Assembly (NCBI GenBank): GCA_002399235.1
Contig: DHDH01000040.1
Span: 18,592-82,591 of the forward strand
DNA length: 64,000 nt
Direction of reading: 5' to 3'
Source of the DNA: Firmicutes bacterium UBA4881
GTDB lineage: Bacteria; Bacillota; DTU065
Shown: positions 5,628-58,013 of the stretch, in pieces
Numbering within the stretch: the first letter of the stretch is position 1
How the letters are laid out: every line of letters begins with the position of its first letter
Position numbers and translations under genes: made by a program
The notes under the pieces: model-generated
The model's database searches: none
Seen by the model: only the letters and a program-made list of their open reading frames with translations
Told to the model about the DNA's origin: nothing

Positions 5628-5691
5628 ATTGACAATTACTAATTTTTTCGGGTAAAATGAAGAAAGATTGCGGAGCAATTCTAAGGAGGGA

Positions 5692-13158: not shown

Positions 13159-14217
13159 TTATCTACAGACAAAAGACCAGCCATAAGTGTAGGTACGCTT
13201 ATCGCTGCCTAATATCTTTATCGTTAGATTATGATGTCCATAACCAAGATCAGGGGTTTCTACTACAATTCGCTGCTTTTGTTGATCAAATTTAGCATCA
13301 AGGACCTGGTTTTCTAGATCAGCATATACTTCAATAACATTTAATTCGGGAGGGAGTTCAACATCAGCTATAACTTTAACTGGTCGATAATTAATTACTT
13401 GAGCTTGGGATGGAACAGTACGTGTTACATTAAGTGGAGCACTTGCAACCTTACGGGCAAAATCTTCTAATGTATCTTTAGCATAGAGCATATGGCGTTT
13501 GAGTCTATAGGGGTTAGGAGTAAGGGTATTAGGCCCTTCTTCGATAAGGAAACATGAAGTAAAACCGACTTCTTTAGCCCAAGACTCAATTTCGTCTGTG
13601 TAAGCTCCATAAGGGTAAGCAAGGCCAGTTACAGGAGTACCTAAAAGTTTTTCTAGACGTTCTTTGTTATCTTTCATCTCCCAGACAGCACCACTTTTAT
13701 TACTTCGAGAAAATTGGCTTAAATCAGCGTGAGATATAGTGTGTGCTTGAATACTCCAACCTAATTTTTGTAATTCTTGGAGTTCGGAAACAGTTAAACC
13801 GCCTGGACTAGGAGAATTTTTAATTCGTTCGGAGTAGATAAAAAGTGTTGCTGGTAGATTATATTTAGCGAGAATTGGTGCGGCATTAGTAAGAGTTTCT
13901 TTATACCCATCGTCAAAGGTAATCAACACAGGTTTTTCTGGTAAAGTGTTCTTACCTTCTAAAAAACCTGTAAAGGTATTAAAATCGATTACATTATACT
14001 GGGTAGCCTTTAGCCATTGCAGGTGATTCTCAAATGTAGAAGTTGAGATATCGATAAAAGAAGGACCATTATCAATAATTCGGTGATAGGCCAGAATTGT
14101 GATGGTTGGAACTTGGCTTTCGGGAACAGATAAGGCCTCTAACTCGTTTTCGCAACCTACTAAGAAGATGGTCACAAAGAGAAAAATAACCAGAAAAACT
14201 TTCAGGTATCTTTTCAT
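13159..14217 (-). CDS. Polysaccharide deacetylase (NodB domain) lipoprotein with C-terminal beta-rich domain
   Basis: Lipobox FLVGC. NodB motifs ITFDDGYKE and AHTISHADL. Confidence 0.85.
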   Translation of the reverse strand: MKRYLKVFLVIFLFVTIFLVGCENELEALSVPESQVPTITILAYHRIIDNGPSFIDISTSTFENHLQWLKATQYNVIDFNTFTGFLEGKNTLPEKPVLITFDDGYKETLTNAAPILAKYNLPATLFIYSERIKNSPSPGGLTVSELQELQKLGWSIQAHTISHADLSQFSRSNKSGAVWEMKDNKERLEKLLGTPVTGLAYPYGAYTDEIESWAKEVGFTSCFLIEEGPNTLTPNPYRLKRHMLYAKDTLEDFARKVASAPLNVTRTVPSQAQVINYRPVKVIADVELPPELNVIEVYADLENQVLDAKFDQQKQRIVVETPDLGYGHHNLTIKILGSDKRTYTYGWSFVCR

Positions 14218-23379: not shown

Positions 23380-23398
23380 TATTTTAGGGGTGTATGTG

Positions 23399-24493
23399 TT
23401 GAAGTCAAGATTAGTAATAATGTTTGTTTTGTTGATGACGGTATTCGCTGCCGCCGCTGATTACAGTGGTTCCTTAAGTTTAACTTATGATACTAATCTT
23501 AAGTTACAACCAGAGTTTACAGCTGCGGCTTCTTTTTATGGTGGTCAGTTGAATGTAAAATTAAAAAAAGGTCTAACCAACTGGGATGAAGATCTACTTT
23601 TACCTAGTTTAGCTGTTGAGGCTAATCTTTTTAGCGGAAGCTACGATTTTATTTATAAACTGTTAGGTTTTGACTGGCGTTATGAAAAGCTACTATCTAG
23701 TTTGGGTGACCGACGTTATTTTGTCGCCCATCGCATTAAAGCTGCTAAGAACGATTGGCCAATATATTTGGATTTCTTTGAGACTAGTGTTTTGAAGGGG
23801 AACAATTTATGGTTAATGTATAACCCGGTACCTTTCTTACCTGTTTATTTGGTTCAACATATTGGCTTGAATAATAAAGAAGTTAATAACCGAGATATTA
23901 ATGTTGATATGGGTTTTAACTTAGGTTATCAGTTTAAAAATCAAGCTTTAACCTTTGTCGAAGTAATTGTCGACGATTTCCCCGCTATCCCCTGGATCGA
24001 TGTGCAGTTACCGATAATGGGAGTAACGTTAGGCTATAATAGCCCCGAGATAGCTAAGCATAATGGTACTATGCGTTATGCTTTGGGATATACAGCTAAT
24101 ACACGTTATCTCCATGCTCATTATGGTGGTTTAATGCGCTATACAAATAGTAATGAATTTCTTGGCGACGATTTAGGCCCAGATGCACAACGGTTCATGG
24201 TAGCTTTTAAGCATACTAGGGCAAATCTAACTGGTGGATTGAACTTAAGCTTTGAGCAACATGGTCCTGGTGATTTAACCGAAAATTGGCTACAGCTTGG
24301 AAGAGAAGAAGCGTTTAAACAGTTCTTCCTTAGTGAGATCGTGGAGAATAAGTTACGTCTAGGTGCTTCGCTAGAAAAAAACTTTAATAAACTAGTTTTC
24401 ACCACCAAAGTAGCTCTAACTAGAGTAATCCCCAAAGAAAGTGGAGCATTTACTGAATATAATGGTAACATTAGTTTAGGTTACCAATTTTAG
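23399..24493 (+). CDS. Secreted hypothetical protein, putative outer-membrane beta-barrel
   Basis: Signal peptide KSRLVIMFVLLMTVFAAAA. Alternating hydrophobic/aromatic strands. C-terminus ...NISLGYQF. Start is GTG 23390, GTG 23396 or TTG 23399, after TAGGGG. Confidence 0.5.
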   Translation: MKSRLVIMFVLLMTVFAAAADYSGSLSLTYDTNLKLQPEFTAAASFYGGQLNVKLKKGLTNWDEDLLLPSLAVEANLFSGSYDFIYKLLGFDWRYEKLLSSLGDRRYFVAHRIKAAKNDWPIYLDFFETSVLKGNNLWLMYNPVPFLPVYLVQHIGLNNKEVNNRDINVDMGFNLGYQFKNQALTFVEVIVDDFPAIPWIDVQLPIMGVTLGYNSPEIAKHNGTMRYALGYTANTRYLHAHYGGLMRYTNSNEFLGDDLGPDAQRFMVAFKHTRANLTGGLNLSFEQHGPGDLTENWLQLGREEAFKQFFLSEIVENKLRLGASLEKNFNKLVFTTKVALTRVIPKESGAFTEYNGNISLGYQF

Positions 24494-30330: not shown

Positions 30331-30783
30331 GTTTAAATGTCTCATATGGATTTATGGCGACCTAGATAAAATGAAAGTTTGCTGAGGGTTAGCTTTTGTG
30401 CTACACGAGGCAAATGAGGTATGTCTAAATAGTTGGATTAAAAGTGCCAAGTTAACACGACCTCTATTCGCTGGATGTGTAAAGGAAGTTTTGCTAGATA
30501 ATTTGGCTTTATTCTTTGGTGATGCTGTTAGATGTATGATAAGTGTGCATAAGGTGTACGCTTTCAAAATTCTTCCATGAAAAAGAAGTAGATAGTTTAG
30601 TATGATTATCAACTTTAGAAGGAGAAATAATTGCACTGACGAATAATAAAAGGGAGGTTTTATACTACCACGTATGAAACCGATTGCAAAGCAATCTATG
30701 TAATTTAGAGGAGGGGTATTACGAGAAAAAGTAAGGAGTGGGGTTATATGGTGAGATTTCATTTGAATAAGGGGGATGTAAAA

Positions 30784-32322
30784 ATGAAAAACAAATCTTT
30801 GGTATGTGTTTTGGTTTTAGCATTGTTATTAACAGCAATGCCAGCTTTAGCTGTAAATGTCAATGTAGGTGGAGAAGTTAACTATATTTTTGTTGCTCCT
30901 ATTAGTACAAGAAAACCAAGTGCTAGTTCAAATTCAGAAATTAAATATAGTTTTAACACAACTATAGACAAAAAGTGGTTTTTAAAGGTAGATTATAATT
31001 TGAGTTTTTCAAAAAAAACACTTGATGAAGCTGCAAAGCTTAAACCTGAAGAAAGGATTTACATCGACACTTTTGTAGATAAAATTGAGATTAAGTATGC
31101 TGATAAAAATTTGAATTTTGCAGCGTATAAGAACCCAGGTGGAAGTATAGGTGAACTAAAAGACACACATAACTTGCTAGTATTTCCTACACCGTGGGGT
31201 GATCCTAACGGATATATGTTGAGAGGATCAGCAAAACCATTTGGTGTTAATATTGATTGTCAGGTTATTGATTCTGGTTGGTATGCATCTGAAATGAATG
31301 GTTTTTATATTAGAGGTAGTGCAGATATCAAAGGAAATACTTTAAATATTGCTGGTCGTACAATCAATGGTGAAAAAGGCGTATTTGATCTATATCAAGG
31401 TGCTTTACATGGTGCTATTCCTATAGGTAAGTTGAAATTGGAACCAGGAATAGGTTTGACTCAGAGAAATGACAAGAAAAAAGACAATATGGCCTTTGGT
31501 ATTAAACTTGCTGGACCTGTTGTTAAGGATCTTGAAATCGATGTCTCGACAAGATTAAGTCAAGCTAATTTTGAAAGTCGCTATTTTAATGGGGACTATT
31601 CAGAGCAAAAAGCTGCTGTGACATGGAAAAAAATGCTTAAAGTATCTGGAGAGCTTGTTGGTCCATTATCAGATTGGAAAACTCGTACTCTAACTCTTAA
31701 TACTGAGTGGAGAAATAGCACTTCAAATAACGATTTTGCTAAGCAGTTTGAAGCTGATAAATACTATACAAATAACGACTTTGGTCTAGGCTTAAAATAC
31801 ATTAGAGATAAAAAAAGCGAAGCAGATAATCCTGAAAACACTATTTTAGTAAGAGGTACTACTCCAGTATTGCCAAAGAAATTATGGGTATTAGGCAGTG
31901 CAACTTTAGTTGAAGACAAAGATTACCTAGAAAAAGGTATCTATACATCAACTAAAAAAATCAATACTTCGTTAAAAGCACAAGCAAAAGTTATTCCGAA
32001 GGTAACTATGGATGGCTACTTTGATTACAAAAAGGATCTTGACAGTAAAATAAGTGGTGAACCAATTAAAGTTGAATCAGGGGCTTTAGGACTTAGTGCA
32101 AAGTATGACTTTAATAATACGGTTTCAGTTGGCGGGAAGTATGAAATTAATAGTAACCGTTTTGGTGAAGGAAACACTGTTTTAGATACTGTTGGAGCTA
32201 ATTGGCTAATAAAGACAAGCGATAACGCTAAGTTTGAAATGGGATATCTTCGTACAAGAAATCTGCTAGAAAAAGAACCAACTAATCATTTGGTTTCTGC
32301 TGCTATTAAGTTGAAATTCTAA
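30784..32322 (+). CDS. Secreted porin-like outer-membrane beta-barrel protein (hypothetical)
   Basis: ATG 30784 lies after GGGGGA. Signal peptide MKNKSLVCVLVLALLLTAMPALA. Long run of alternating amphipathic strands. C-terminal ...VSAAIKLKF. Confidence 0.55.
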   Translation: MKNKSLVCVLVLALLLTAMPALAVNVNVGGEVNYIFVAPISTRKPSASSNSEIKYSFNTTIDKKWFLKVDYNLSFSKKTLDEAAKLKPEERIYIDTFVDKIEIKYADKNLNFAAYKNPGGSIGELKDTHNLLVFPTPWGDPNGYMLRGSAKPFGVNIDCQVIDSGWYASEMNGFYIRGSADIKGNTLNIAGRTINGEKGVFDLYQGALHGAIPIGKLKLEPGIGLTQRNDKKKDNMAFGIKLAGPVVKDLEIDVSTRLSQANFESRYFNGDYSEQKAAVTWKKMLKVSGELVGPLSDWKTRTLTLNTEWRNSTSNNDFAKQFEADKYYTNNDFGLGLKYIRDKKSEADNPENTILVRGTTPVLPKKLWVLGSATLVEDKDYLEKGIYTSTKKINTSLKAQAKVIPKVTMDGYFDYKKDLDSKISGEPIKVESGALGLSAKYDFNNTVSVGGKYEINSNRFGEGNTVLDTVGANWLIKTSDNAKFEMGYLRTRNLLEKEPTNHLVSAAIKLKF

Positions 32323-32349: not shown

Positions 32350-32895
32350 ATGAAAAATAAATTTAAAAGCCTAATTTTAGTAACTCTTCTTGGAGTTATA
32401 ATTTTAACATTGTCAGGTTGTTTATTTAAGCCATCAGAGGGTGGAATTATATCAAGTGGAAGGCCCTACGAATATTTCAACTTTACTGTGCGTAACGATT
32501 ATACTGATACCAATAACGTAGAATTAACAGATGGCAAGACTGGTGATTATAGTGATCCTGGTGATGGTCCATGGGTGGGTCTTTGGAAAGGTGAAGAAAA
32601 AGAGATGCCAGGCACTGTTGTAATTGATCTTGGTAAAGCTCAACAGATTAGTTCTGTAAGTGCTTATTTCTTAAATGGTTCTTGGGGTATAAACGTTCCG
32701 GCGAAAATGGAAGTTTATGTCTCTAATGATGCAAAGACCTGGGATGGTCCATACACTTATGAGCCAGGTTCTATTACTGGAAAAGTAGGTGTTTGGTATA
32801 GTGCATCAGTGAATAAAGTTGGGCAGTATGTCAGATGCGACATGTTCTTTAATGGCGCCAATATTTGGGTTAGTGAGATTACTGTTATTCAATAA
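32350..32895 (+). CDS. Lipoprotein with discoidin (F5/8 type C)-like carbohydrate-binding domain
   Basis: Lipobox LTLSGC. Pattern LTDGKTGD...WVGLW...VVIDLG...ISSVSAYF...VYVSNDAKTW... Confidence 0.6.
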   Translation: MKNKFKSLILVTLLGVIILTLSGCLFKPSEGGIISSGRPYEYFNFTVRNDYTDTNNVELTDGKTGDYSDPGDGPWVGLWKGEEKEMPGTVVIDLGKAQQISSVSAYFLNGSWGINVPAKMEVYVSNDAKTWDGPYTYEPGSITGKVGVWYSASVNKVGQYVRCDMFFNGANIWVSEITVIQ

Positions 32896-34927: not shown

Positions 34928-35211
34928 AATCGCAAAGACTGTGAAAGGGGAAAGTACCTTTTGATGGACTTAATAGAGAGCTGGGGTGGGTGGAAACCTA
35001 GCAGGAAATCATAAGCGAAGTTCTCCCTGGAGTTGCTTAGCTGAAGTAAGTAGGCTAGGACGGAAACTTCTACCGTTAAAAAGAAGCAGGTATCGGCTAT
35101 ATTTGACGATTGTATGTCATCGCCCGCACCTGATAAAGAGGGCTATATTTATAGCCAATTAGGGTGGTACCGCGAGTAAACCTCGTCCCTGTGGGGATGA
35201 GGCATTTTTTT
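34928..35211 (+). promoter_or_regulatory. T-box riboswitch leader (probable Phe specifier)
   Basis: AGAGAG box and GGTGGGTGGAAACC distal region. Canonical T-box sequence AATTAGGGTGGTACCGCGAG at 35157-35176. Terminator CCTCGTCCC-tgtg-GGGATGAGG plus T7 at 35181-35211. UUC sits in the expected specifier position (GCGAAG-UUC-UCCC). Confidence 0.8.
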
Positions 35212-44609: not shown

Positions 44610-45063
44610 TATATTAAAAGTACCTAAAGTATTTTATGAGTTATAAATGATTATTTAAAGGGAACCAAAGGTCGAGTGCACTCTATGTTTTAGCTGTGCC
44701 AAAGACCTTGGTTCCCATAAATTTCGTCTTTTTTCTAGTAGCTACACTTTGTTGGTTAAGGTTAAGCCAATCGAAGCTTAACAACTATCAAGATAGGCTA
44801 TATAAATGAGTAGATGATCAAAAAAGCTATACCCCTTCCAAAGCAATATGGACTACTCCAGTTGTCTGTGGTACTTTGTTTTTTGTAAATAAAGCATATT
44901 TCTAGGACCACTTTTGTTATCTTTTCTTAGGTAAAAAAAAGGCATCGCTAATAGGAAAGAGAATAATTACCTATTGGCACCCAAGAAATGGAAATTTCAA
45001 GGTGTAGAAATTTTCTGCTTGGTCATTATAGGTATGTGCCCATTATTTTAGGAGGTGAGAAAA

Positions 45064-46110
45064 ATGGATTTAGCTCAATTATTAAAAGATCTTTCCGAGA
45101 GCAGTGGTGTCTCGGGATATGAGAATATGCCAGCAGATATTATTACCAAAGCTTGGTCAGAGCTAGCTGACGAAGTTAGAAGAGATGCTCTAGGGAATGT
45201 CATTGCAGCAAAAAAAGGCAAAGGACACGGAAAACTTCTTTTAGCAGCTCACATAGATGAGATCGGTCTGATGGTAAAAAAGATCGATGAAAGGGGTTTT
45301 ATTCGTTTTGCCACTGTAGGTGGTTTTGATTTCCGTACTTTAGTTGCTCAAGAGGTTATAGTACATGGAAAGAAGCAACTTAAGGGAGTTATAGGTGCTA
45401 AACCACCTCATCTGCAAGCACCAAATGAACAAAAGAAAGCTTATCCAGAAGACGAATTCTATATTGATGTAGGCCTTACAGCGGACAAGGTTAAAGAACT
45501 GGTACGCATTGGAGACATGATCACTATAGAAAGAAAGGTACAACAACTAGCAGGTTCTCGTTATGCGGGTAAATCCTTTGACGATCGCGCTTGTGTAGTG
45601 ATGCTAACAGCATGTCTTTCTAGATTAGCTGAAGTTAACCACAACCTTGATGTCTACTTAGTAGCTACAGTTCAGGAGGAAGTAGGTACTAGAGGAGCAG
45701 CTGTTGCTGCTTATGGAGTCGATCCTGATTTAGCCATAGCAGTGGATGTTTGTCATGGTGAATTCCCGGGTGTAAGAGCTGATCGTGGTTTTAGCTTAGG
45801 TAAAGGTCCGGTTATTAGTATGGGACCTGATACACATCCTAAGATTTTAGATAAACTCAAAGAGATAGCTGATGAGGCCAAGATTTCCTATCAACTAGAA
45901 GCTTCTACTAGTGCAGGAGGGACAGATGCCTGGAGTATCCAAGTGGCCAGAGCTGGGATTGCTTGTACTTTAGTATCTCTGCCTCTACGTTATATGCACA
46001 CATCAGTAGAGACATTGGATCTGGCTGATATTAAAGAAGGCGGGCGTCTTCTCGCTGAATTTGCCTTGAAGGCAGATCGCCAGTTTGTGGAGGGATTGCC
46101 ATGTTTCTAA
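45064..46110 (+). CDS. M42 family metallo-aminopeptidase (TET/FrvX/YsdC-like), paralog 1
   Basis: ATG 45064 lies 9 nt after AGGAGG. Contains AHIDEIG, FDDRA and VQEEVGTRGA motifs. Confidence 0.88.
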   Translation: MDLAQLLKDLSESSGVSGYENMPADIITKAWSELADEVRRDALGNVIAAKKGKGHGKLLLAAHIDEIGLMVKKIDERGFIRFATVGGFDFRTLVAQEVIVHGKKQLKGVIGAKPPHLQAPNEQKKAYPEDEFYIDVGLTADKVKELVRIGDMITIERKVQQLAGSRYAGKSFDDRACVVMLTACLSRLAEVNHNLDVYLVATVQEEVGTRGAAVAAYGVDPDLAIAVDVCHGEFPGVRADRGFSLGKGPVISMGPDTHPKILDKLKEIADEAKISYQLEASTSAGGTDAWSIQVARAGIACTLVSLPLRYMHTSVETLDLADIKEGGRLLAEFALKADRQFVEGLPCF

Positions 46111-47126
46111 AAGAACTAAGCGAAGCTAGTGGCATATCTAGCCGAGAGCAAGAGATAAGGGATCTGATAAGAGAGTATGTAAAGCCTAATGTAGATGAGG
46201 TATTTACTGACTCTTTAGGCAATCTTTATGCTGTAAAAGGCAAAGACAAAGTAGGTCCCAAAGTAATGCTAGCAGCTCACATGGATGAAGTTGGCCTAAT
46301 GATTACCAATATCGAAAAGAACGGTCTCTTGCGGTTTAGTCCTGTAGGTGGAGTAGACCCTAGAGTTTTAGTATCCAAGCCAGTAGCTATTGGGAAAAAT
46401 AAGGTGATTGGTGTAATTGGTGCTAAAGCGATTCACTTGCAAAGACCAGAAGAAAGAAGTCAAGTTTTAGGTTATGACGACCTTTATATTGATATTGGTG
46501 CTAGTGATGACGAAGAAGCTAAAAAACTAGTTAAAACCGGCGATGTGGTAGTTTTTGCAACTAAGTTTCAAGAATTAGGTGATCTTCTTCTAGGTAAAGC
46601 ATTTGACGATCGAGCTGGGTGTACAGCGTTAATCGAACTGACTAAATGTGAATTCGCTTGCCCTGTTTACTTTGTTTTTACAGTACAAGAAGAAGTTGGA
46701 CTAAGAGGAGCTGGTCCAGCTAGCTACCGAGTTGCACCCGATGTAGCACTTGTATTAGAAGGTACCACAGCTTCTGATGTAGGTGAAACAGACGAAGCTA
46801 ACTATTCAACTACCTTAGGTGAAGGACCAGCAGTTACGATTATGGATCGTTCGGTTATATCACACCCGGGTGTAGTTTCGATGCTATTTAAATTAGCAAG
46901 AGAAAATGGTATACCTCTACAAATGAAGCGTACAATCACTGGTGGGACTGATGCAGGTAAGATTTCCCTTAGTCGTGGAGGCGTCCCTACTGCGGTAATG
47001 GCTGTACCTTGCCGCTATATACATTCACCAGTTACGGTTATGAATTATAACGACCTACAGCATATGGTTAAACTAGCAGAAATCTTTGTGCAGGAGATTG
47101 CTCAAAAAGGGGTGGAGTTGTCATGA
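46101..47126 (+). CDS. M42 family metallo-aminopeptidase, paralog 2
   Basis: AHMDEVG, FDDRAG and VQEEVGLRGA motifs. Overlaps the upstream stop by 10 nt. Confidence 0.88.
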   Translation: MFLKELSEASGISSREQEIRDLIREYVKPNVDEVFTDSLGNLYAVKGKDKVGPKVMLAAHMDEVGLMITNIEKNGLLRFSPVGGVDPRVLVSKPVAIGKNKVIGVIGAKAIHLQRPEERSQVLGYDDLYIDIGASDDEEAKKLVKTGDVVVFATKFQELGDLLLGKAFDDRAGCTALIELTKCEFACPVYFVFTVQEEVGLRGAGPASYRVAPDVALVLEGTTASDVGETDEANYSTTLGEGPAVTIMDRSVISHPGVVSMLFKLARENGIPLQMKRTITGGTDAGKISLSRGGVPTAVMAVPCRYIHSPVTVMNYNDLQHMVKLAEIFVQEIAQKGVELS

Positions 47127-48103
47127 AAGAGCTATTAGAAAAGCTGACTCAAGCTTATAGTCCTTCCGGATCAGAAAGAAGTATCCGTGAGATAATAAAA
47201 GCCGAACTAGCTAACTATGAAACTAAAACCGATGCTCTCGGTAACTTAATAGTTGAGAAAAAAGGTAACGGTAAGAAGATAATGTTTTCGGCTCACATGG
47301 ATGAGATCGGCATTATGGTGACCCACATCGATAAAGAAGGATTTTTACGCTTTGATTTTATCGGTGGTGTCGGTGCCTATAATTTACCAGGTGAGCGAGT
47401 AAGATTTGCTAATGGCACTTTAGGTGTTATTAGTGTGGAGAAACTAGACAAGATCGGTGACTTAAAACGAGAAAGCCTTTATATCGATATCGGGGCGGAA
47501 TCTAGAGAAGAAGCAGAAAAGCTGGTTAAAGTTGGCGATAGTGCTGCTTTTATCTCACCCTTTATTGATCTTGGTAATAGAGTTGTTTCTAAGGCTATGG
47601 ACAATCGATCTGCCTGTACAGTTTTGGTGCAACTTATGAAAGAACTCCCAGAAACAGACAACCATATCGTTGCTGTTTTTAGCGTGCAGGAAGAAGTAGG
47701 TCTTAGAGGTGCTACAACAGCTGCTTTTTCTGTAGCGCCAGATTATGGTATGGCTATTGATGTTACAGCTACTGGTGACACTCCTAAAGGACTCACCATG
47801 GAGGTTGGTTTAGGTAAAGGTGCAGCTATTAAGGTCAAGGATCGTTCTATTATGGTTCATCCTTATGTAAAAGAGAAGCTAATAGAATTAGCTGAAAAGA
47901 ATAACATTCCCTACCAAATGGAAGTCTTGGAGTTTGGTGGTACAGATGCAGGTGCTATTCACCTGAGCCGTTCTGGTGTACCATCTGGAGTACTATCAAT
48001 TCCTTGTCGTTATGTACACAGCCGTTCGGAAATGATCGATTACCGGGATTTGGAGGCAGTGCTCAAGCTAGCTAAAGCGTTTGCTGGAGCTGATCTCCAA
48101 TGA
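47123..48103 (+). CDS. M42 family metallo-aminopeptidase, paralog 3
   Basis: AHMDEIG, MDNRSA and VQEEVGLRGA motifs. ATGA overlap with the upstream gene. Confidence 0.88.
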   Translation: MKELLEKLTQAYSPSGSERSIREIIKAELANYETKTDALGNLIVEKKGNGKKIMFSAHMDEIGIMVTHIDKEGFLRFDFIGGVGAYNLPGERVRFANGTLGVISVEKLDKIGDLKRESLYIDIGAESREEAEKLVKVGDSAAFISPFIDLGNRVVSKAMDNRSACTVLVQLMKELPETDNHIVAVFSVQEEVGLRGATTAAFSVAPDYGMAIDVTATGDTPKGLTMEVGLGKGAAIKVKDRSIMVHPYVKEKLIELAEKNNIPYQMEVLEFGGTDAGAIHLSRSGVPSGVLSIPCRYVHSRSEMIDYRDLEAVLKLAKAFAGADLQ

Positions 48104-49920: not shown

Positions 49921-49994
49921 TGGAGGATCGTCTAGGGGTAGGACAGCGGGTTCTGGCCCCGCCAGCGAGGGTTCGAATCCTTCTCCTCCAGCCA
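49921..49994 (+). tRNA. tRNA-Gln (anticodon CUG), CCA encoded
   Basis: Hand-folded cloverleaf. Acceptor TGGAGGA/TCCTCCA, D stem GTCT/GGAC, anticodon stem GCGGG/CCCGC with loop TTCTGGC, T arm GAGGG-TTCGAAT-CCTTC, then GCCA. Confidence 0.85.
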
Positions 49995-50003
49995 ATAATT
50001 AAT

Positions 50004-50079
50004 GGCCCCATCGTCTAGTGGCCTAGGACACCGCCCTCTCACGGCGGTGACAGGGGTTCAAATCCCCTTGGGGCTACCA
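50004..50079 (+). tRNA. tRNA-Glu (anticodon CUC), CCA encoded
   Basis: Hand-folded cloverleaf. Acceptor GGCCCCA/TGGGGCT (G1-U72), anticodon stem CCGCC/GGCGG with loop CTCTCAC, T arm AGGGG-TTCAAAT-CCCCT, then ACCA. Confidence 0.85.
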
Positions 50080-50637: not shown

Positions 50638-50680
50638 ATAGCCCCTCGGACTTAATTTAAGTTAGGGGCTTTATTTTTGA
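50638..50680 (+). terminator. Intrinsic terminator after ppa
   Basis: ATAGCCCCT-cggacttaatttaagtt-AGGGGCTTTAT followed by TTTTG. Confidence 0.75.
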
Positions 50681-50922: not shown

Positions 50923-52095
50923 ATGCAAAGACACTATTTATTAACTATACTTCTTGTTTTATCTTTGACGGTGGCTGTAGCAGGGCAGAATCGAGTTGCT
51001 GTATTAGGTGTGTTTGGCGAAGCTCCCTTAAACTATAAGCAATTTTTAGAAACACGTATAACCAAGGAACTTGTTTCTCTTAACCGTTTAGAAGTACTAG
51101 ATCGAACTCATGCCGAGCAGCTTTTGAAAGAAATTTCGTTTCAAGTAGCTTTAGGTGAGAATTCTGTTGGTGTTGGTAAAATGCTTGGAGCCGATATTGG
51201 ACTTTTAGCAACTATAGATCTACTTTACACAGAAGAAAATGAAAATACCTTTAATACTAAAGCAGAAATAACTTTAAAAACTGTAGAGATTGCAACAGCG
51301 AGGATCTTAGCAACTGCTACAGTTAAAGGTACAGCCGAAGCAAATTCCTTAGCTAGTGCTGAGATTATGGCTTTGGAGAATTGCCTTCTAGAAACCAATG
51401 CTACCCTTTATTCTCTATTTGGATTAACCAGTGAAATATTAGAAGTGAAAGGAAAAGTTCTTTATATTTTACCAGGTAGAGAAGCTCTTATTAACGGAGG
51501 AGTTTATAGTGTTATTCGTACTGAAGAAATTAAAGGTCACCCAATGGAGAGGGAGATTGGTAAACTACGTTACGAAGAAAGCAAAGATCTATCACGTGGT
51601 ATTGTTTTAGCAAAAACCGAAGAGATCTTAGAAAAAGACACAGTTGGCCATCTCAAAGCCAGATCAGGAAACTATCGGCTCTATTCGTTAGGGACTTTAG
51701 AAGGTCTAAAAGGTGGTTTAAGTTACTGGATAATAAAACCTTTTGAGTTAAGTTTTGGTGCTTTGGTTAATCTTAATATAGCTAAACCAACAAATTCTTT
51801 AGAATTGTATTTAGAAGTAGATAAAGAATTTGCTCTATCTCCCAATAACTACAGTGGAGTAATTGGGGCTGGTTTTGGAGGGGCTTGGTTAATCCAAAAA
51901 CTAGTAGATAAAAAGTATTTTGGTAAAAGTTTACTTTTTACAGGCAAGATAGGAATTCGTTTTTATAATACTACTAAAATGTACGAATTGGCCCTCGAAC
52001 CACGCCTTCCTTTGGTAACAAATTGGTCCGAAAGTGTTAATATCAAAAACAACCCTAGTTTATGGCTTACTCTAAGTTGGGGTAGTGTTGAGTGA
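50923..52095 (+). CDS. Envelope operon ORF1: secreted CsgG/LpoB-like domain + small beta domain + putative C-terminal beta-barrel
   Basis: Signal peptide MQRHYLLTILLVLSLTVAVAG with no lipobox Cys. NRVAVLGVFGE...LEVLDRTHAEQLLKEISFQ...LGADIGLLATI...TARILATATVKG. C-terminal Gly/aromatic alternating strands. Confidence 0.5.
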   Translation: MQRHYLLTILLVLSLTVAVAGQNRVAVLGVFGEAPLNYKQFLETRITKELVSLNRLEVLDRTHAEQLLKEISFQVALGENSVGVGKMLGADIGLLATIDLLYTEENENTFNTKAEITLKTVEIATARILATATVKGTAEANSLASAEIMALENCLLETNATLYSLFGLTSEILEVKGKVLYILPGREALINGGVYSVIRTEEIKGHPMEREIGKLRYEESKDLSRGIVLAKTEEILEKDTVGHLKARSGNYRLYSLGTLEGLKGGLSYWIIKPFELSFGALVNLNIAKPTNSLELYLEVDKEFALSPNNYSGVIGAGFGGAWLIQKLVDKKYFGKSLLFTGKIGIRFYNTTKMYELALEPRLPLVTNWSESVNIKNNPSLWLTLSWGSVE

Positions 52096-52110
52096 AAGTG
52101 AGGACTGCCT

Positions 52111-53355
52111 ATGAGAAAGTATCTAGCAATTATATTAATTGGGATCTTTATCATCTTACCTTTGGCTTTAGCCCAAGAAAGACCCCGAGTAGCTGTGTTA
52201 AGTAATTCTTATTCTAACTGGTCTGGATATGACCGTGAACTAGAAGCTAAGCTAACTGATCTACTTTTTAGCCTCGATAGATTCGAATTAGTTGAACGCC
52301 GCTATATTGATAATGTTTTAAAAGAACAAGCTTTACAACTATCATATGGTAGTCCAGATACTATAATAAGGGCGGGTCGCTTATTAGGAGCTACATATGG
52401 TTTTGTTATTCAACTTGATAATATTAATACAGTTTGGAGTAAAGATAGTTACAAAGCTGAGATAAAACTTTCTGTAAAATGTGTGGAGATTGAGACTGGT
52501 AAAATTATTGGTGCTAAACAAGCTAATGGTTATGGTTTTAACCGCTCAACCGATCTTGCGATCAGTGAAGCTATAGAAATGATCTTTTTAGAAGACCTTA
52601 CACCTGCAATCAAGAGCTGGTTTCGATTAGGTAGTTCTATTGTTAGTAGAAGTGATAATTTTGTTTATATAGCTTTAGGCCAAAACGCAGGTGTGAAAAA
52701 AAATTCTCGGTATTTAGTTTTCAAGGAAGTTGATTTAGGTATAGAAACACAAAGTCCAATTTTAGAAGAAGTGGGACTAGTTGAGATAAAAAATAGCGGT
52801 TATGATTGGGCCCAAGCTGTTATATTAAAAGAAAATGAACCGATAAAAGCTGGGTTTATAGTTTCTGAACAGGTTTTAGAAAACTATAAACTATTTAGTT
52901 TTAGTGGTGTCATAGGCAAGAACCCTGGTTTAGAAGTTTCTTATGGGTTTTACCGCCCTTGGAGCCATATGGCTAATGTTAGCGTTATTTTCGAAGCGTC
53001 GCCACAAATTTTAAATACTATTGTTGTGACAGAATATCTCAAGGAATTGCGTTTTACCAATAATCTCTCTCTATTCATTGGTGGTGGTTTGGGTTCTTCG
53101 TTAGGTACTCAAAGCGATCTTTCAGGATCTAGTATTAACTCGCTTTCTTATCTAGCCAATGGTCGAGGAATATTAAAATTAACTCTAGGAGATAGTTACG
53201 ATTTTCGGGTTGGCGCAGCATACTTTTTAGCTACAACTTATAATAATTGGTATTATGATTATTCGAAGATACCTGTTCCTAACTATAGGGTTACAGCTAA
53301 AGAATATAACCCGAGTGGTCTCAGACTTAATATAGGCATTTCCTTTTCTTTTTAG
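52111..53355 (+). CDS. Envelope operon ORF2: paralog of ORF1 (CsgG/LpoB-like + beta domain + C-terminal beta-barrel)
   Basis: Signal peptide MRKYLAIILIGIFIILPLALA. RPRVAVLSNS...FELVERRYIDNVLKEQALQ...LGATYGFVIQL...TGKIIGAKQANG. Ends ...GLRLNIGISFSF (aromatic terminus). Confidence 0.5.
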   Translation: MRKYLAIILIGIFIILPLALAQERPRVAVLSNSYSNWSGYDRELEAKLTDLLFSLDRFELVERRYIDNVLKEQALQLSYGSPDTIIRAGRLLGATYGFVIQLDNINTVWSKDSYKAEIKLSVKCVEIETGKIIGAKQANGYGFNRSTDLAISEAIEMIFLEDLTPAIKSWFRLGSSIVSRSDNFVYIALGQNAGVKKNSRYLVFKEVDLGIETQSPILEEVGLVEIKNSGYDWAQAVILKENEPIKAGFIVSEQVLENYKLFSFSGVIGKNPGLEVSYGFYRPWSHMANVSVIFEASPQILNTIVVTEYLKELRFTNNLSLFIGGGLGSSLGTQSDLSGSSINSLSYLANGRGILKLTLGDSYDFRVGAAYFLATTYNNWYYDYSKIPVPNYRVTAKEYNPSGLRLNIGISFSF

Positions 53356-53466
53356 GGTAACCGAATTGTGAATGATCTGTCATACTTTAGTAAGATCTCT
53401 AGCTAATATTCGCTAAACCATTCTTTGTTACTCCATCTGGAAGGGGGGAAAGAATCATCGTTGGCG

Positions 53467-54372
53467 ATGGTTCTCATTAACATGAAAAAAATTGTTATTT
53501 TGCTTTTAATAATCAGCTTAAGTGTTACTCTTTTTGCTAATTCATTACCTACAGGCTATCTAATCGAATCACATACTAGCTACAATGGTTCTATTAACTG
53601 GACTAAGCAAGATGTCGAAGTTATTGGTTATGGGGCTTTAATTGTCTCTCCAGATAGACCCTATTTCCAAGCAAAGTTGATGGCCAGAGAGGCAGCTAAA
53701 ACAGATGCATATAGGAATCTGGCTGAGATGCTTAAAGGTATTTATGTAACTTCAGAAACTACAGTACTAAACTTTATTACCGAAAATGATTTTGTACGAA
53801 AAAAAGTTGAGATGTTTATTCAGGGAGCAGAAATTATTGAAGAAAAAGAAATTGAAGGCGGTGGCTACGCAGTTAAACTTAGGTTAGCTTTAGGTGGACC
53901 TAAGGAAGGGAATATCGCCTCTGTACTCCTGCCAGAAGTTGCTAAAAACGATAGCGATGTTTTAACAACTAAAATTCAGTTTGGCTCAAATTACGAAGAA
54001 AAGCCTACCTATCAGGTACCTAAATCTACTAGCGATGTAACAGGAGTTATTATTGATGCTAGAAATTTAGAAGTAAGACCAGCCATGAGCCCTAAGATTT
54101 TTAGCTCTGACGGTAAAGAAGTCTTTGGCCCAAGGTATATTGATCCCTATAAAAATCCTGACTCACCTTTAGTCGCTTACACCAGGGATTTGGAAACAGC
54201 TAGATCATTGGCTCGCGTAGGCGAAAATCCAGTTATAATAAATGCAATTGGCGTGGTTGGGACTAATCAGAGTGATGTGGTTATAGCTAAAGCAGATGCG
54301 GATATTATTTTTGACCAAAACAAGCTAGGTGGCTTTTTAGCAGAAGGTCGTATTGTTATTATAATCAAGTAG
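53467..54372 (+). CDS. Envelope operon ORF3: secreted LPP20/FlgP-like domain protein with unknown C-terminal domain
   Basis: Signal peptide (MVLIN)MKKIVILLLIISLSVTLFA. YFQAKLMAREAAKTDAYRNLAEMLKGIYVTSETTV...GAEIIEEKEIEGGGYAVKLRL. Start uncertain (TTG 53461, ATG 53467 or ATG 53482). Confidence 0.45.
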   Translation: MVLINMKKIVILLLIISLSVTLFANSLPTGYLIESHTSYNGSINWTKQDVEVIGYGALIVSPDRPYFQAKLMAREAAKTDAYRNLAEMLKGIYVTSETTVLNFITENDFVRKKVEMFIQGAEIIEEKEIEGGGYAVKLRLALGGPKEGNIASVLLPEVAKNDSDVLTTKIQFGSNYEEKPTYQVPKSTSDVTGVIIDARNLEVRPAMSPKIFSSDGKEVFGPRYIDPYKNPDSPLVAYTRDLETARSLARVGENPVIINAIGVVGTNQSDVVIAKADADIIFDQNKLGGFLAEGRIVIIIK

Positions 54373-54383
54373 GGGGGGTTCCT

Positions 54384-55499
54384 TTGAGACTAAAAAAACT
54401 ACTTGCTGTTTTATTGGTTATATTGTTGGTAATACCTCAAGGAGTGTTAGCTCAGTCGCAAACGAACACCGATCATACAAAAAATGTCTTGATTGTAGCA
54501 GGAACAGTCACTGTGGTAGGACTAAGTGTTTATTTATATAATTCTGTTAAAACAAACCTAGAAGTTAAAAAACTTTACAATGACGCCGAAGAGAAAATTG
54601 TTCAAGGTGATTGGTTTGGAGCTTACGAAAAATTAAATCTCATTATGCACAAAAAGCATAATTATAAAGACGCTAAGAGTAAACTCGAGTTGGTTAAAGA
54701 AGTAGGTGCAAACTACTACACTGACCTTGGGGATAGACAAGTTGTAGAACAAAGATTGGAAGAAGCTGCCCTTAATTATCGTAAAGTTTTAATGATGAGC
54801 CCTAATAATTTAAGAGCTAGAGCTGGATTAGATAACTTAAATAGTAGACTAGCAGATATGTATTATAATCGGAGCTTGGGCTACTTTAGCGAAGGTGACT
54901 TTAAAGAAACAGAGCTAGAGTTAAATAAAGCAGTTGCCCTAAACCCAGATATGGATAAAACTTTATTAAAAGAAGTTCTAGCAATAAATCAAAACCAAAA
55001 ACTAACTAAAGTAGCTATCATTTTCCTAGGTAATCAAAGTTCAGTTTCTGGCATTGAAGCTATTATCATGCCGCGGTTGCAAGAATTTTTAGAACGGGAC
55101 AACTTGATTGTCCTCTCTCAACTAAAAGTGAGAGCATTTATGGATGAGCAAGGAAAGTATCTCTTTCCAACCTATGATACAAAAGCGGCTGTTGAAACTG
55201 GCCTTATATTAGGTCAAGATAAAGTCATTTATGGCGATCTAACTAAATCTCAGTTGACTCCTTTCAAAAAGCAAACTGGGAATAAGTTGCAGCAAAGTTT
55301 AACAGGGGAATTAGAATTTAAAATTAACATCGTTGATGTTAAAGCGACTACAATTCAAACAGAACATTTTCGTTATAAAGAAAGTGTAACTAGTACAGTT
55401 ACACCACTAGAAGCTGCTGTAACTGAGAATATGATGCTCCAGGAACTTTTACAAAATATCTCGCAAAAACTAGCTAGGGATATAGCAAGGAGGCTATAA
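54384..55499 (+). CDS. Envelope operon ORF4: signal/TM-anchored TPR protein with C-terminal CsgG/LpoB-like domain
   Basis: TTG start 5 nt after a G7 SD. MRLKKLLAVLLVILLVIPQGVLA plus a second hydrophobic segment VLIVAGTVTVVGLSVYLY. TPR-like YNRSLGYFSEGDFKETELELNKAVALNP. KVAIIFLGN...LIVLSQLKVRAFMDEQ...LGQDKVIYGDL. Confidence 0.45.
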   Translation: MRLKKLLAVLLVILLVIPQGVLAQSQTNTDHTKNVLIVAGTVTVVGLSVYLYNSVKTNLEVKKLYNDAEEKIVQGDWFGAYEKLNLIMHKKHNYKDAKSKLELVKEVGANYYTDLGDRQVVEQRLEEAALNYRKVLMMSPNNLRARAGLDNLNSRLADMYYNRSLGYFSEGDFKETELELNKAVALNPDMDKTLLKEVLAINQNQKLTKVAIIFLGNQSSVSGIEAIIMPRLQEFLERDNLIVLSQLKVRAFMDEQGKYLFPTYDTKAAVETGLILGQDKVIYGDLTKSQLTPFKKQTGNKLQQSLTGELEFKINIVDVKATTIQTEHFRYKESVTSTVTPLEAAVTENMMLQELLQNISQKLARDIARRL

Positions 55500-55503
55500 G
55501 CTT

Positions 55504-56583
55504 ATGCGAAAGCGTCTTTTACTGGTATTAATAATTTCCATGCTTTCTTTAGTTACTTTAGCCAATGAAGGACGCTGGATCGAAGCTAAAGGTGTTGCTA
55601 TAGTTATAGATAATCAGAAAGAGCTGGCTTATGAAGCAGCACTTAAAGATGCCTTAAAAAGAGCTGTAGAAACTGGAGTCGGTGTCTATGTGTCAGTCGA
55701 GACTAAGACTGAGAATTTTGCTTTAATATCGGACTCTATTTTGACCAAAGCTAATGGCTACGTAAAAGAATACACTGTGTTGAATACTAGCTTTACAGAC
55801 GATTACTGCCAGGTATTGCTAAAGGCTTGTGTAAGCCTTACTGATCTTAAAAATGATCTACAGGCCCAAGGGTTGATGATCAAAAGAGCCGGAGACCCGC
55901 GAATTATTGTCCAAATCGAAGAATATTCAGATGTTTCTTATCTTTCTACCTCTGTAGCCCAGGAAGTTGCTGAAAAAGCCTTGAAAGATAGAGGTTACAA
56001 CGTAATTAAATCGAGACCATTAGAGCAATATTTAGCTTACAAGACTAGAGAAGATGAATACTTAAAATTAGTTGATGCAGATATTTTAGTTAGAGGGAAT
56101 GCAACTGCTACAAGGTTATCAAGTATAGGTGGTATGTTTTCCTATGGTTCAACTGTTGTACTTAGTGTTTATCGGAGTGGTTCTCCACAGATCCTAGCTT
56201 CGGTGACAAAAAATGGTAGAGGTATTCATGTTTCTCCTCAATTAGCTACTGAACTAGCCATTAAGGAAGCTTTGAGCTCTGCCATTGAGGAGTTGAGCTG
56301 GGAAATTCTTACTAGTCTAACTGAACCTATAAAAAGGGTGCAACTTAAGGTCTTAGAGTTAGACTTTGCTCTATATAGCCAACTTTCTAGTAACTTACAA
56401 AGAATAAGTGGTGTTTCTCAGGTCTTTCCACGTAGTTATAGGAATGGAGAGGGGCTTTTTGATATTGACACAACTCAATCTTCAATGGCGATCGCTATTT
56501 ACTTAAGTAAAAACTTAGGTTGGGAAATTATCAGGCATACTGAAAATATTATTGAAACTAAGGTTGTTAAAACAAACAATTAA
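55504..56583 (+). CDS. Envelope operon ORF5: secreted FlgT-like protein (LPP20-like N domain + CsgG-like middle domain + C-terminal alpha/beta domain)
   Basis: Signal peptide MRKRLLLVLIISMLSLVTLA. WIEAKGVAIV...AYEAALKDALKRAVETGVGVYVSVET...NGYVKEYTVL. DPRIIVQIEE...VAEKALKDRGYNVI...DADILVRGNATA. Confidence 0.45.
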   Translation: MRKRLLLVLIISMLSLVTLANEGRWIEAKGVAIVIDNQKELAYEAALKDALKRAVETGVGVYVSVETKTENFALISDSILTKANGYVKEYTVLNTSFTDDYCQVLLKACVSLTDLKNDLQAQGLMIKRAGDPRIIVQIEEYSDVSYLSTSVAQEVAEKALKDRGYNVIKSRPLEQYLAYKTREDEYLKLVDADILVRGNATATRLSSIGGMFSYGSTVVLSVYRSGSPQILASVTKNGRGIHVSPQLATELAIKEALSSAIEELSWEILTSLTEPIKRVQLKVLELDFALYSQLSSNLQRISGVSQVFPRSYRNGEGLFDIDTTQSSMAIAIYLSKNLGWEIIRHTENIIETKVVKTNN

Positions 56584-56656: not shown

Positions 56657-57217
56657 ATGAAAAAAAATAAAGCTTGGATTATTGTACTGGCAGTCTTAGT
56701 TATTATGTTGTTAGGGACAATAAGCAGTTATAACAAACTTGTTAATCTCAGTGAATCAGTTGATGCTCAATGGGGACAGGTGGAAAACCAGTTACAATCC
56801 CGTTATGATAAGATTCCTAATCTTGTAGCTACTGTTAAAGGTTATGCTAACCATGAAAAGGAAGTATTTGAATCATTAGCAGATGCTAGAGCTAAAATGG
56901 CCGGTGCTCGTTCTATAAATGAACAAGTTGAAGCAGCTAATGCAATGGAATCTGCTCTATCAAGATTATTGGTTGTTGTAGAGAACTACCCTGAATTAAA
57001 AGCAGATCAACAATTTAATCAGTTAATGTATGAGATTTCCGGCACTGAAAATAGAATAGCAGTAGAAAGAATGCGTTATAATGATTCTGTAAAGAGCTAC
57101 AACAGTAGAGTCAAACGCTTTCCTACAGTGATGTTAGCTAATATGTTCGGCTATGAACCTAGAGCTTACTTTGAAGCTGCCAAGGGTGCAGAGGTAGCGC
57201 CTAAAGTGGAGTTTTAG
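56657..57217 (+). CDS. lemA: LemA family protein
   Basis: N-terminal TM segment. YNKLVNLSESVDAQWGQVENQLQSRYDKIPNLVATVKGYANHE is classic LemA. Confidence 0.88.
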   Translation: MKKNKAWIIVLAVLVIMLLGTISSYNKLVNLSESVDAQWGQVENQLQSRYDKIPNLVATVKGYANHEKEVFESLADARAKMAGARSINEQVEAANAMESALSRLLVVVENYPELKADQQFNQLMYEISGTENRIAVERMRYNDSVKSYNSRVKRFPTVMLANMFGYEPRAYFEAAKGAEVAPKVEF

Positions 57218-57275
57218 GAATCTAGGTAAGATGGAGGTTAGTAAAGAAGTTAAAACTCTTTACTAAAGCAAGACT

Positions 57276-58013
57276 ATGAAAAAATTGGTTATGGTCCTTT
57301 TAGTGTTACTACTATCTTGTGGAGTATTAGCACTAACACCGCTACCTTTTACAAATATTCATGACTATGCCCATCTTCTTGGTAATACCAGAGATTTAGA
57401 TCAGCGAGTAGAAACATTATACGAACACACAGGTGTCGAATTAGCTATTGTAACAATAGCTAAATTAGAGAATCAAAGCATAGAGATGTTTTCTGTTAAT
57501 CTTTTTGAAGAATGGGGCATCGGCAGAAAAGGTGAGGATAAAGGTCTATTACTAGTCATTTCTCTTGACCCACGCGAAGTTAGACTAGAAACAGGTTATG
57601 GGTTAGAAGGGGCTTTACCTGATTCTTTTGTGGGGACTAAGTTAGATGAACTTGTTGCACCATCTCTCGCTAGGGGTAGCAATGAAGGACTAATTGAATT
57701 TGTTAATGCTATTGAAGAAAGAATTATTAGCCAAGGCGATGCTAATCCCCAAGCTAATTTTTATCTTGAATATGATTCAGATGATTCCATGGTAACTTCG
57801 ATTACTCGTTTGCCTTTTGCGAACTTAGGGTTTATAATCATCATCCTAATCTTAATCTTTCTCGATTTAAGATTCACTGGGGGTATGGTTTTAAGAAGTA
57901 TTCTCCGTGCCTCTGGTAGAGGTTACCGCTCTGGCGGAGGTGGATCATCTGGCCGTAATCGCTATGGTGGTGGAGGAAAAAGTGGTGGCGGTGGCGCCTC
58001 GACTAAATGGTAA
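57276..58013 (+). CDS. TPM-domain protein (YgcG-like) with TM segment and Gly-rich tail
   Basis: Possible lipobox LLLSCG. VELAIVTI...FEEWGIGRKGEDKGLLLVISLDPREVRLETGYGLEGALPD. TM LGFIIIILILIFL. GGGGSSG...GGGKSGGGG tail. Confidence 0.85.
   Translation: MKKLVMVLLVLLLSCGVLALTPLPFTNIHDYAHLLGNTRDLDQRVETLYEHTGVELAIVTIAKLENQSIEMFSVNLFEEWGIGRKGEDKGLLLVISLDPREVRLETGYGLEGALPDSFVGTKLDELVAPSLARGSNEGLIEFVNAIEERIISQGDANPQANFYLEYDSDDSMVTSITRLPFANLGFIIIILILIFLDLRFTGGMVLRSILRASGRGYRSGGGGSSGRNRYGGGGKSGGGGASTKW

Follow-up and report, generated by a model that had tools for sequence, protein, structure and literature searches.

CsgG, LpoB, PelC and GNA1162 (Pfam PF03783 and PF13036) are proteins with an alpha/beta periplasmic domain positioned under the outer membrane (OM); they carry an N-terminal lipid on a lipobox cysteine, and the hairpins of CsgG form a composite pore of 36 strands. 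Here we consider two tandem open reading frames, ORF1 and ORF2, located in a 64,000-nucleotide stretch of contig DHDH01000040.1 of Firmicutes bacterium UBA4881 (the whole stretch is called the window below), the products of which share with these proteins the alpha/beta domain and, probably, its position under the OM. They differ from them by the absence of a lipobox, as there is no cysteine in the first 120 residues of either, and by the presence of a predicted, self-contained C-terminal barrel of eight strands. We think it likely that ORF1 and ORF2 are paralogous integral OM proteins of a diderm spore-forming member of the Bacillota and that they anchor a five-protein, OM-tethered periplasmic oligomeric scaffold.

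FlgT consists of three domains, N, M and C, is attached to the LP-rings and has no described membrane anchor (bioRxiv 10.64898/2025.12.02.691832). As in ORF2, its TolB-N/CsgG-like middle domain is followed by a small beta-barrel; in addition, a FlgT_N domain is found in the neighbouring ORF5 and a FlgT_C domain in 14 of 74 long relatives. By contrast, FlgT has no membrane barrel, whereas ORF1 and ORF2 have no FlgT_N domain, end in the predicted 8-strand barrel and are accompanied by no flagellar genes in the window or its flanks.

The predicted barrel resembles the N-terminal domains of OmpA and OprF, as well as OmpX, NspA, OmpW and TtoA, by its aromatic C-terminal beta-signal, its lumen of glycine and small residues and its hydrophobic outer faces. 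In OmpA, however, the periplasmic domain follows the barrel, an order that is reversed in ORF1 and ORF2, and the ORF1/2 barrel gives no significant sequence match to these 8-stranded barrels. OmpM of diderm Terrabacteria follows the same design principle, and ORF1 and ORF2 stand to the CsgG-type lipoproteins as OmpA stands to Pal; but OmpM, with its SLH domain and a porin-sized barrel, serves to tether the OM to peptidoglycan, whereas ORF1 and ORF2 lack such a domain and possess an 8-strand barrel only. ORF3, encoded downstream of ORF2, matches the FlgP/LPP20 lipoproteins in sequence but is longer by a C-terminal domain of about 150 aa and, containing no cysteine, cannot be lipidated.

ORF1 and ORF2 belong to the broader CsgG/LpoB/TolB-N-like superfamily. 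Membership of three individual families was considered and rejected: CsgG, given the missing lipobox, the partial profile match and the absence of csg partners; LpoB, given scores far under the cut-off; and FlgT, given the absence of an N domain and of a flagellar context.

Domain architecture of ORF1 and ORF2

The two genes and their parts are listed below (positions in the window, all on the + strand).

50923..52095, +, ORF1, 390 aa: signal peptide, CsgG/FlgT-M-like domain, small beta domain and predicted C-terminal 8-strand barrel
50923..50982, +, ORF1 signal peptide, aa 1-20, read from the sequence, with cleavage between AVA and GQ and without cysteine
50986..51423, +, ORF1 CsgG/LpoB/TolB-N-like alpha/beta domain, about aa 22-167, placed by alignment to the ORF2 domain
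51424..51657, +, ORF1 small beta domain, FlgT-C-like, about aa 168-245, placed by alignment to ORF2
51658..52092, +, ORF1 C-terminal domain, aa 246-390, predicted by homology to be an 8-stranded OM barrel
52111..53355, +, ORF2, 414 aa, organised like ORF1
52111..52173, +, ORF2 signal peptide, aa 1-21, with cleavage between ALA and QE and without cysteine
52174..52626, +, ORF2 CsgG/LpoB/FlgT-M-like alpha/beta domain, aa 22-172 (Pfam CsgG and Foldseek)
52627..52875, +, ORF2 small beta-barrel domain, similar to FlgT-C and to the N-terminal domain of F1-ATPase subunits, aa 173-255 (model strands 175-255, Foldseek)
52876..53352, +, ORF2 C-terminal domain, aa 256-414, predicted 8-stranded transmembrane barrel of the OmpA/OmpX class (AlphaFold2 and Foldseek)

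Two tandem paralogs had been proposed here by the original prediction, made from the letters of the window, and both are present in the list of reading frames with exactly the coordinates and lengths then given; BLASTP confirms their paralogy (27% identity over 261 aa, E=1e-19). Each N-terminus has a basic n-region followed by a hydrophobic core and an Ala-X-Ala site, as had been announced, with the cleavage sites, assigned by eye from the sequence, after MQRHYLLTILLVLSLTVAVA (before GQ) in ORF1 and after MRKYLAIILIGIFIILPLALA (before QE) in ORF2. The claim that none of ORF1 to ORF5 has a lipobox cysteine also holds: the only cysteines are at aa 154 in ORF1, aa 124 in ORF2 and aa 102 and 109 in ORF5, and ORF3 and ORF4 have none. 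No upstream lipobox was missed, because the listed ORFs all begin at the earliest start codon that follows a stop, and no further upstream in-frame start is possible. Genuine lipoboxes do exist elsewhere in the window, at the places first indicated (13159-14217, IFLVGC; 32350-32895, LTLSGC; GerAC, FFTGC).

The C-terminal beta-rich region is present in both proteins, although its length (145 aa for ORF1, 159 aa for ORF2) exceeds the 130 or so residues initially estimated. ORF2 ends in NIGISFSF, as reported, and its beta-signal is GLRLNIGISFSF. To model this region, the C-terminal domains were cut from the family alignment and 30 of them were realigned, ORF2 residues 256-414 heading the alignment. 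From this 30-sequence alignment, AlphaFold2 predicted eight long strands with a mean predicted local distance difference test score (pLDDT) of 96.5 and a predicted TM-score (pTM) of 0.87, all five models scoring >94. The predicted periplasmic turns have 3-4 residues, and a single long outer loop (aa 375-402) connects strands 7 and 8. When the model was compared with the PDB using Foldseek, the best 50 matches were all OM barrels; the highest are 8-stranded, namely OmpA (1qjp, TMt 0.79, root-mean-square deviation 3.1 A; also 1bxw) and the N-terminal domain of OprF (4rlc, TMt 0.80), and the other 8-stranded matches include NspA, OmpX, OmpW, Ail and Thermus TtoA (TM range 0.6-0.8). This model and the fact that its PDB matches are OM barrels only speak against a soluble beta-sandwich, the alternative fold that had been envisaged for the region.

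In every strand of the ORF2 barrel, hydrophobic or aromatic residues occupy one face and glycine, serine or polar residues the other (for strand 8, LLIIF versus GRNGSS), and the summed difference between faces is 18.2, compared with 10.5 +/- 2.75 in shuffled sequences, a value reached by 12 of 2000 shuffles. The 145 C-terminal residues of ORF1 match the ORF2 model strand for strand in the alignment; they are detected by hmmsearch using a profile built without the ORF1 group (30.0 bits, E=9e-9) and also using a profile restricted to distant members (21.6 bits). The best of 400 shuffled controls scores 6.7 bits with the first profile and 6.7-8.4 bits over these comparisons. Among relatives, the C-terminal domains give weak Pfam matches to OMP_b-brl (0.04) and OMP_b-brl_2 (0.014), and three full-length long relatives match OMP_b-brl (PF13505), the best with E=3e-10. 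On the strength of the model, we predict with high confidence that the C-terminus of ORF2 forms an 8-stranded OM barrel. The barrel is structurally of the OmpA/OmpX class and lies outside any curated sequence family; its class was recognised by fold comparison only, the sequence search against the PDB being without matches. The absence of a lipobox, the high-confidence model and the homology between the two barrels together support the proposal that a barrel is used instead of a lipid anchor.

The periplasmic part had been described as CsgG-like. For ORF2 this is upheld by Pfam CsgG (PF03783), with 24.0 bits for a cut-off of 20.8 and a match restricted to model positions 36-150 of 210; ORF1 is weaker, with 12.1 bits and under the cut-off, and its domain is assigned because it is paralogous to ORF2. 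Matches of ORF2 to LpoB are well under threshold (NCBIfam TIGR02722, 19.7 bits for a cut-off of 110.55; Pfam PF13036, 12.6 bits for a cut-off of 22.3), and at E<=1 neither of the two proteins is itself matched by Pfam FlgT_C. Over the 74 long relatives, Pfam finds CsgG in 66 and LpoB in 39, beside the FlgT_C matches mentioned above, and NCBIfam TIGR02722 finds LpoB in 31. Foldseek returned Vibrio FlgT (3w1e, E=1.1e-8, 284 columns) as the top match of the full-length ORF2 model, followed by the FlgT chain in 8z5n, a structure of the LPHT ring, and then by CsgG (4uv2, 1e-4), CT253, GNA1162, PelC, Cj1090c and LptE, and the small middle domain matches the N-terminal beta-barrels of F1-ATPase subunits. 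According to these profile and fold matches, the N-terminal two thirds of ORF1 and ORF2 are an alpha/beta domain of FlgT-M/CsgG/LpoB type followed by a small barrel of FlgT-C type. The original fold assignment is correct at the level of the CsgG-like superfamily, but the nearest structural relative is FlgT (domains M and C) and not CsgG itself.

It could be argued from the score of ORF2 over the Pfam CsgG cut-off, and from the Foldseek matches to CsgG and PelC, that the two proteins are genuine secretion channels of the CsgG type, through which a curli-like amyloid or some other exopolymer would pass. We regard this as highly improbable: the profile match is limited to part of the CsgG model and the lipobox is absent, no csgA/B/E/F or pel genes were found nearby by the Pfam scan of the window, which took in ORFs of >=150 aa, and the membrane part is predicted to be an 8-strand barrel that is monomeric, separate from the rest, too narrow to be a channel and unlike the CsgG-type hairpins.

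Relatives of the two proteins

Using an exhaustive profile search of representative sequences (50%-identity clusters), we obtained 2813 relatives at E<=1e-3, and 152 sequences were examined; a word-indexed protein search was far less sensitive, with 3 relatives found by ORF2 alone and 9 by a 74-sequence profile. Long forms of 380-620 aa represent 96 of the 152 sequences, and the short forms (240-330 aa) end after the small beta domain. The last residue is F, W or Y in 66 of the 96 long forms versus 4 of 43 short forms, and many long forms have tails typical of outer-membrane proteins (OMPs), such as GVDVRAGVSFTF, GLDMRIGVTYLF and GFGLRISLGLGF.

The architecture had been called unusual for this fold. 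This remains appropriate in relation to the characterised members, but the fusion is not rare, since it is found in at least 96 clusters at 50% identity, one of them from Fidelibacterota. It is widespread in metagenomes, where the proteins, if named at all, are called 'hypothetical protein', and no paper describing a CsgG-like domain fused to a barrel was found in the literature searched, which was incomplete. The C-terminal 8-strand barrel thus defines an unannotated domain family, without a Pfam model, of about 100 or more 50%-identity clusters.

The ORF1 to ORF5 operon and its proposed role

ORF1 and ORF2 are followed by three further genes on the same strand. The features around them are the following.

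50640..50679, +, terminator-like G+C hairpin and T-run after the pyrophosphatase gene (ppa), AGCCCCT...AGGGGCT, TTTATTTTT; consensus match only
53482..54372, +, ORF3, secreted, FlgP/LPP20-like (Pfam LPP20, 24.6 bits) and extended by a further domain at the C-terminus; start uncertain
54384..55499, +, ORF4, TPR protein (Pfam TPR_2) with a CsgG-like core at aa 241-324, near the C-terminus (hhalign)
55504..56583, +, ORF5, secreted protein with a FlgT_N domain at aa 24-108 (Pfam FlgT_N, 36.4 bits for a cut-off of 28.8)

The hairpin after ppa appears to mark the upstream boundary of the transcription unit, and ORF1 has a ribosome-binding site, GGGAGAG, 8 nt 5' of its ATG. The gaps are 15 nt between ORF1 and ORF2, 11 nt between ORF3 and ORF4 and 4 nt between ORF4 and ORF5; the gap before ORF3 is up to 126 nt depending on the start codon. 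The candidate starts of ORF3 are TTG at 53425, ATG at 53467 and ATG at 53482, with a GGAGG at about 53440; the last of the three yields the cleanest signal peptide, and the gene callers pick a 301-aa start in relatives. The same five genes follow ppa in relatives with ORF2 proteins 89% and 52% identical to that of the window, and from this gene order we conclude that ORF1 to ORF5 are a conserved operon. Short contigs from an oligo-dT RNA-Seq of a food-fermentation metagenome (53613-53750, 54373-54730 and 57147-57304) cover ORF3, the ORF3/ORF4 junction, ORF4 and a LemA/TPM junction, with none on ORF1 or ORF2, although contig data cannot show absence; they are weak evidence of transcription.

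In the PDB, ORF3 matches by sequence 9hmf_C (2.7e-6) and the FlgP chains of 8z5n_2 and 9yds (1e-3 to 1e-4). The ORF4 core matches the family profile in hhalign with a probability of 73.5% (E=3e-5). By the same comparison ORF5 is not significant (probability 6%); this protein also has a weak NCBIfam match to LipL46.

We propose the following course for ORF1 and ORF2. As read from their sequences, both would leave the cytoplasm through Sec and be cleaved by signal peptidase I, without lipidation. The N-terminal two thirds would remain periplasmic as the alpha/beta domain and the small FlgT-C-type beta-barrel, and the last 145-159 residues are predicted, with high confidence, to fold into the 8-stranded OmpA/OmpX-class barrel, which BAM would insert by means of the C-terminal beta-signal. 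Because the number of strands is even, both ends of the barrel should lie on the periplasmic side, and the barrel would purely pin the module under the OM. Judging from the literature, it would substitute for the N-terminal lipid of the characterised relatives CsgG, LpoB, PelC and FlgO/FlgP. In diderm Terrabacteria, Lol and OM lipoproteins are wholly absent (PMC11784454; bioRxiv 10.1101/2021.05.31.446380), and a barrel anchor would fit this lineage because it is expected to be without the Lol pathway and OM lipoproteins.

With ORF3, ORF4 and ORF5, the two proteins probably build an OM-tethered periplasmic oligomeric scaffold of which ORF1 and ORF2 would be the membrane anchors; we propose it because the operon contains non-lipidated versions of ring-forming folds together with two barrel anchors. 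In other bacteria, every domain type of the five proteins is found in large rings beneath the OM. In Vibrio, FlgT makes a 26-fold ring, and lipidated FlgP and FlgO make 58-fold rings under the OM (bioRxiv 10.64898/2025.12.02.691832). It is conceivable, though doubtful, that the operon encodes an equivalent, free of lipoproteins, of the H-ring or basal disk of flagella or of some other OM-associated ring machine, in Bacillota not yet recognised as diderm, with FlgT-M/C-, FlgP- and FlgT_N-like modules and a TPR protein mounted on two barrel anchors.

A strictly flagellar version of this idea, in which ORF1 to ORF5 are accessory flagellar outer rings of diderm Bacillota, analogous to the Vibrio H-ring or the Campylobacter basal disk, and ORF1 and ORF2 replace the lipid-anchored FlgO/FlgP, is in our opinion unlikely. 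It would account for the best structural matches of ORF2, which are FlgT 3w1e and then the LPHT ring 8z5n, for the matches of ORF3 to solved FlgP chains, for the FlgT_N domain of ORF5 over the Pfam cut-off and for the nature of ORF4 as a TPR protein, one operon holding all the H-ring folds. MotX in Vibrio and PflA/PflB in Campylobacter belong to the TPR kind of repeat proteins. The structural description of MotX speaks only of a fold of 11 alpha-helices (bioRxiv 10.64898/2025.12.02.691832). However, no flagellar gene was found in the window or in 10 kb on each side, proteins resembling LPP20 or CsgG often occur without any link to flagella, and distant members of the family are stand-alone genes.

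Another explanation would have ORF1 and ORF2, like LpoB, regulate peptidoglycan synthesis or the spacing of the envelope, or act as adaptors in these processes, linking the OM to the wall or to a synthase, with ORF3 to ORF5 being unrelated envelope proteins. The LpoB matches of relatives, in both Pfam and TIGR02722, and the weak ones of ORF2 point in this direction, yet the TIGR02722 score of ORF2 is a small fraction of the cut-off, the long disordered linker of LpoB is lacking in ORF1 and ORF2, there is no penicillin-binding protein gene nearby and the conserved five-gene operon points to a joint function, so that we hold this role to be improbable.

Several observations weigh against ORF1 and ORF2 as barrel anchors of a scaffold in a diderm cell. 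Concerning the barrel, ORF1 ends in LTLSWGSVE without a terminal aromatic residue, its last strand being SLWLTLSWG followed by SVE; the barrel profile finds no PDB chain sequence at E<=10, the C-terminal domain of ORF2 has no Pfam match at E<=1, and NCBIfam gives sub-threshold OMP matches only for the isolated barrel domains. The full-length AlphaFold2 model of ORF2, computed on a 4-sequence alignment, is poor (pLDDT 63) and does not fix the arrangement of the domains. Concerning the anchor, the ORF1 ortholog P0005 in the metagenome-assembled genome (MAG) AS05jafATM_29 (L007:1801-3069 and L001:724-1992) has a lipobox-like LLLSC inside its signal peptide; judging by the sequences, lipidation of ORF1 is not conserved, the ORF1 of the window having no cysteine there, and the ortholog in AS05jafATM_29 may combine lipidation with a barrel. 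Fidelibacterota have the Lol pathway, and the presence of the fusion in this group means that the absence of Lol cannot be its sole reason. Concerning the scaffold, the distant members from Fidelibacterota (P0153, P0154 and P0155) are stand-alone genes without FlgP-like, FlgT_N-like or conserved partners, and both the formation of a ring or scaffold and the partnership of ORF1 to ORF5 are inferred. Concerning the host, no gene of OM biogenesis (BamA, TamB, Lpt, Lpx, OmpM) was found in the 64-kb window or in 10 kb on each side, and the nearest named relatives by AspRS are mostly monoderm genera of Clostridia type.

If ORF1 and ORF2 are barrel anchors as proposed, the locus illustrates how diderm Terrabacteria may place proteins that are lipoproteins elsewhere, by mounting a CsgG/LpoB/FlgT-type module on a minimal OmpA-class barrel, in parallel to the cases of Pal/OmpA and OmpM; this agrees with the view that those relatives of Gram-positive bacteria that have two membranes assemble the OM without lipoproteins. 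The compact five-gene operon offers a study case for OM-tethered periplasmic ring assembly and, should the reading as a lipoprotein-free ring be true, it would reveal the form that such assemblies take in bacteria that lack or never had Lol.

Two observations concern the operon and its downstream border. ORF4 has a signal-peptide-like segment (…GVLAQS) followed by a second hydrophobic stretch, VLIVAGTVTVVGLSVYLY, which may be a transmembrane helix. A pair of LemA and TPM-domain genes (56657-58013) follows the operon in the window and also in the relative with 89% identity; in the relative with 52% identity, the contig stops before this position.

Host lineage and envelope

The window has a G+C content of about 38% and carries features of Bacillota: GerA/GerAC, CdaA-YbbR-GlmM, a T-box and a 6S RNA. 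Identical proteins were found in the MAG assemblies GCA_036734885.1 and GCA_002411305.1 and in 'fermentation metagenome' runs, and the ORF2 relative of 52% identity is on a contig of 'Bacillota bacterium AS05jafATM_29'. Scans of genomes and metagenomes for the loci of relatives returned one AS05jafATM_29 contig and one near-identical contig, and the same scan using P0007 alone found nothing. AspRS is 80-85% identical to that of Bacillota MAGs and 62-65% identical to that of Zhaonella, Calderihabitans, Desulfofundulus, Moorella, Hydrogenispora and Thermincola. According to this comparison, the lineage, a Bacillota group of fermentation and biogas metagenomes, is unclassified. An assignment to 'Ca. 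Darwinibacteriales' (MBA03/DTU010, Limnochordia-related) was rejected, as the G+C content is 59% there versus about 38% here.

Two further ORFs of the window could encode OM barrels.

30748-32322, +, OMP candidate, 524 aa, secreted, with a signal peptide and the tail ...AAIKLKF
23390-24493, +, OMP candidate, 367 aa, with a signal peptide and the tail ...NISLGYQF, without a family match

A C-terminal pattern hydrophobic-x-hydrophobic-x-aromatic occurs in 3 of the 62 ORFs of >=100 aa, namely ORF2 and these two, and all three have a signal peptide. When 49 ORFs were ranked by alternating hydrophobicity, 30748-32322 came first (z=4.7), 23390-24493 third and ORF1 fourth. Neither candidate has a PDB or NCBIfam match, and 30748-32322 has no Pfam match either. 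An ortholog of 30748-32322 in a close relative (L003:593-2050) is 50% identical and keeps the ...IKLKF tail; by its sequence this protein behaves like a fast-evolving surface OMP and is probably a large unannotated OM barrel.

Because these two ORFs combine a signal peptide with a beta-signal, we consider the host very probably diderm, and this uncultured fermentation and biogas group of Bacillota can be flagged accordingly as probably two-membraned. GerA/GerAC and the typical Bacillota operons and leaders of the window (CdaA-YbbR-GlmM, T-box), as well as the lack of OM-biogenesis genes in the window and its 10-kb flanks, would be expected from an ordinary monoderm Firmicute, in which the C-terminal domains of ORF1 and ORF2 would be beta domains that are soluble or attached to the wall, unless the two proteins act in a sporulation-specific double-membrane compartment. 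This interpretation has little chance of being right in view of the high-confidence barrel model and its 50 top PDB matches to OM barrels only, the beta-signal and the enrichment of C-terminal aromatic residues across the family, and the two additional OMP-like ORFs. To our knowledge, moreover, the CsgG, LPP20/FlgP and FlgT_N domains have been characterised in diderm envelopes only.

Directly 3' of the candidate 30748-32322, the gene at 32350-32895 (+) encodes a lipobox (LTLSGC) protein with an F5/8 type C carbohydrate-binding domain. The pair formed by this protein and the OMP candidate recurs in L003; an OMP coupled with a lipoprotein is not what one would expect of a lineage devoid of OM lipoproteins. 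At 5668-7176 (+) a membrane-anchored peptidyl-prolyl isomerase of 502 aa has SurA_N-like, rotamase and TPR parts and gives partial matches to PrsA, PpiD and SurA; it may serve as a periplasmic chaperone if the cell is diderm.

The RNA features found in the window using Rfam are as follows.

10373-10552, 6S RNA
34932-35193, T-box leader upstream of a DAHP synthase gene
49921-50076, two tRNA genes just before ppa

Finally, three tandem paralogs of the M42 peptidase family, with overlapping stop and start codons, are located at 45055-48103, an arrangement that is kept in the relatives L003, L004 and L006.

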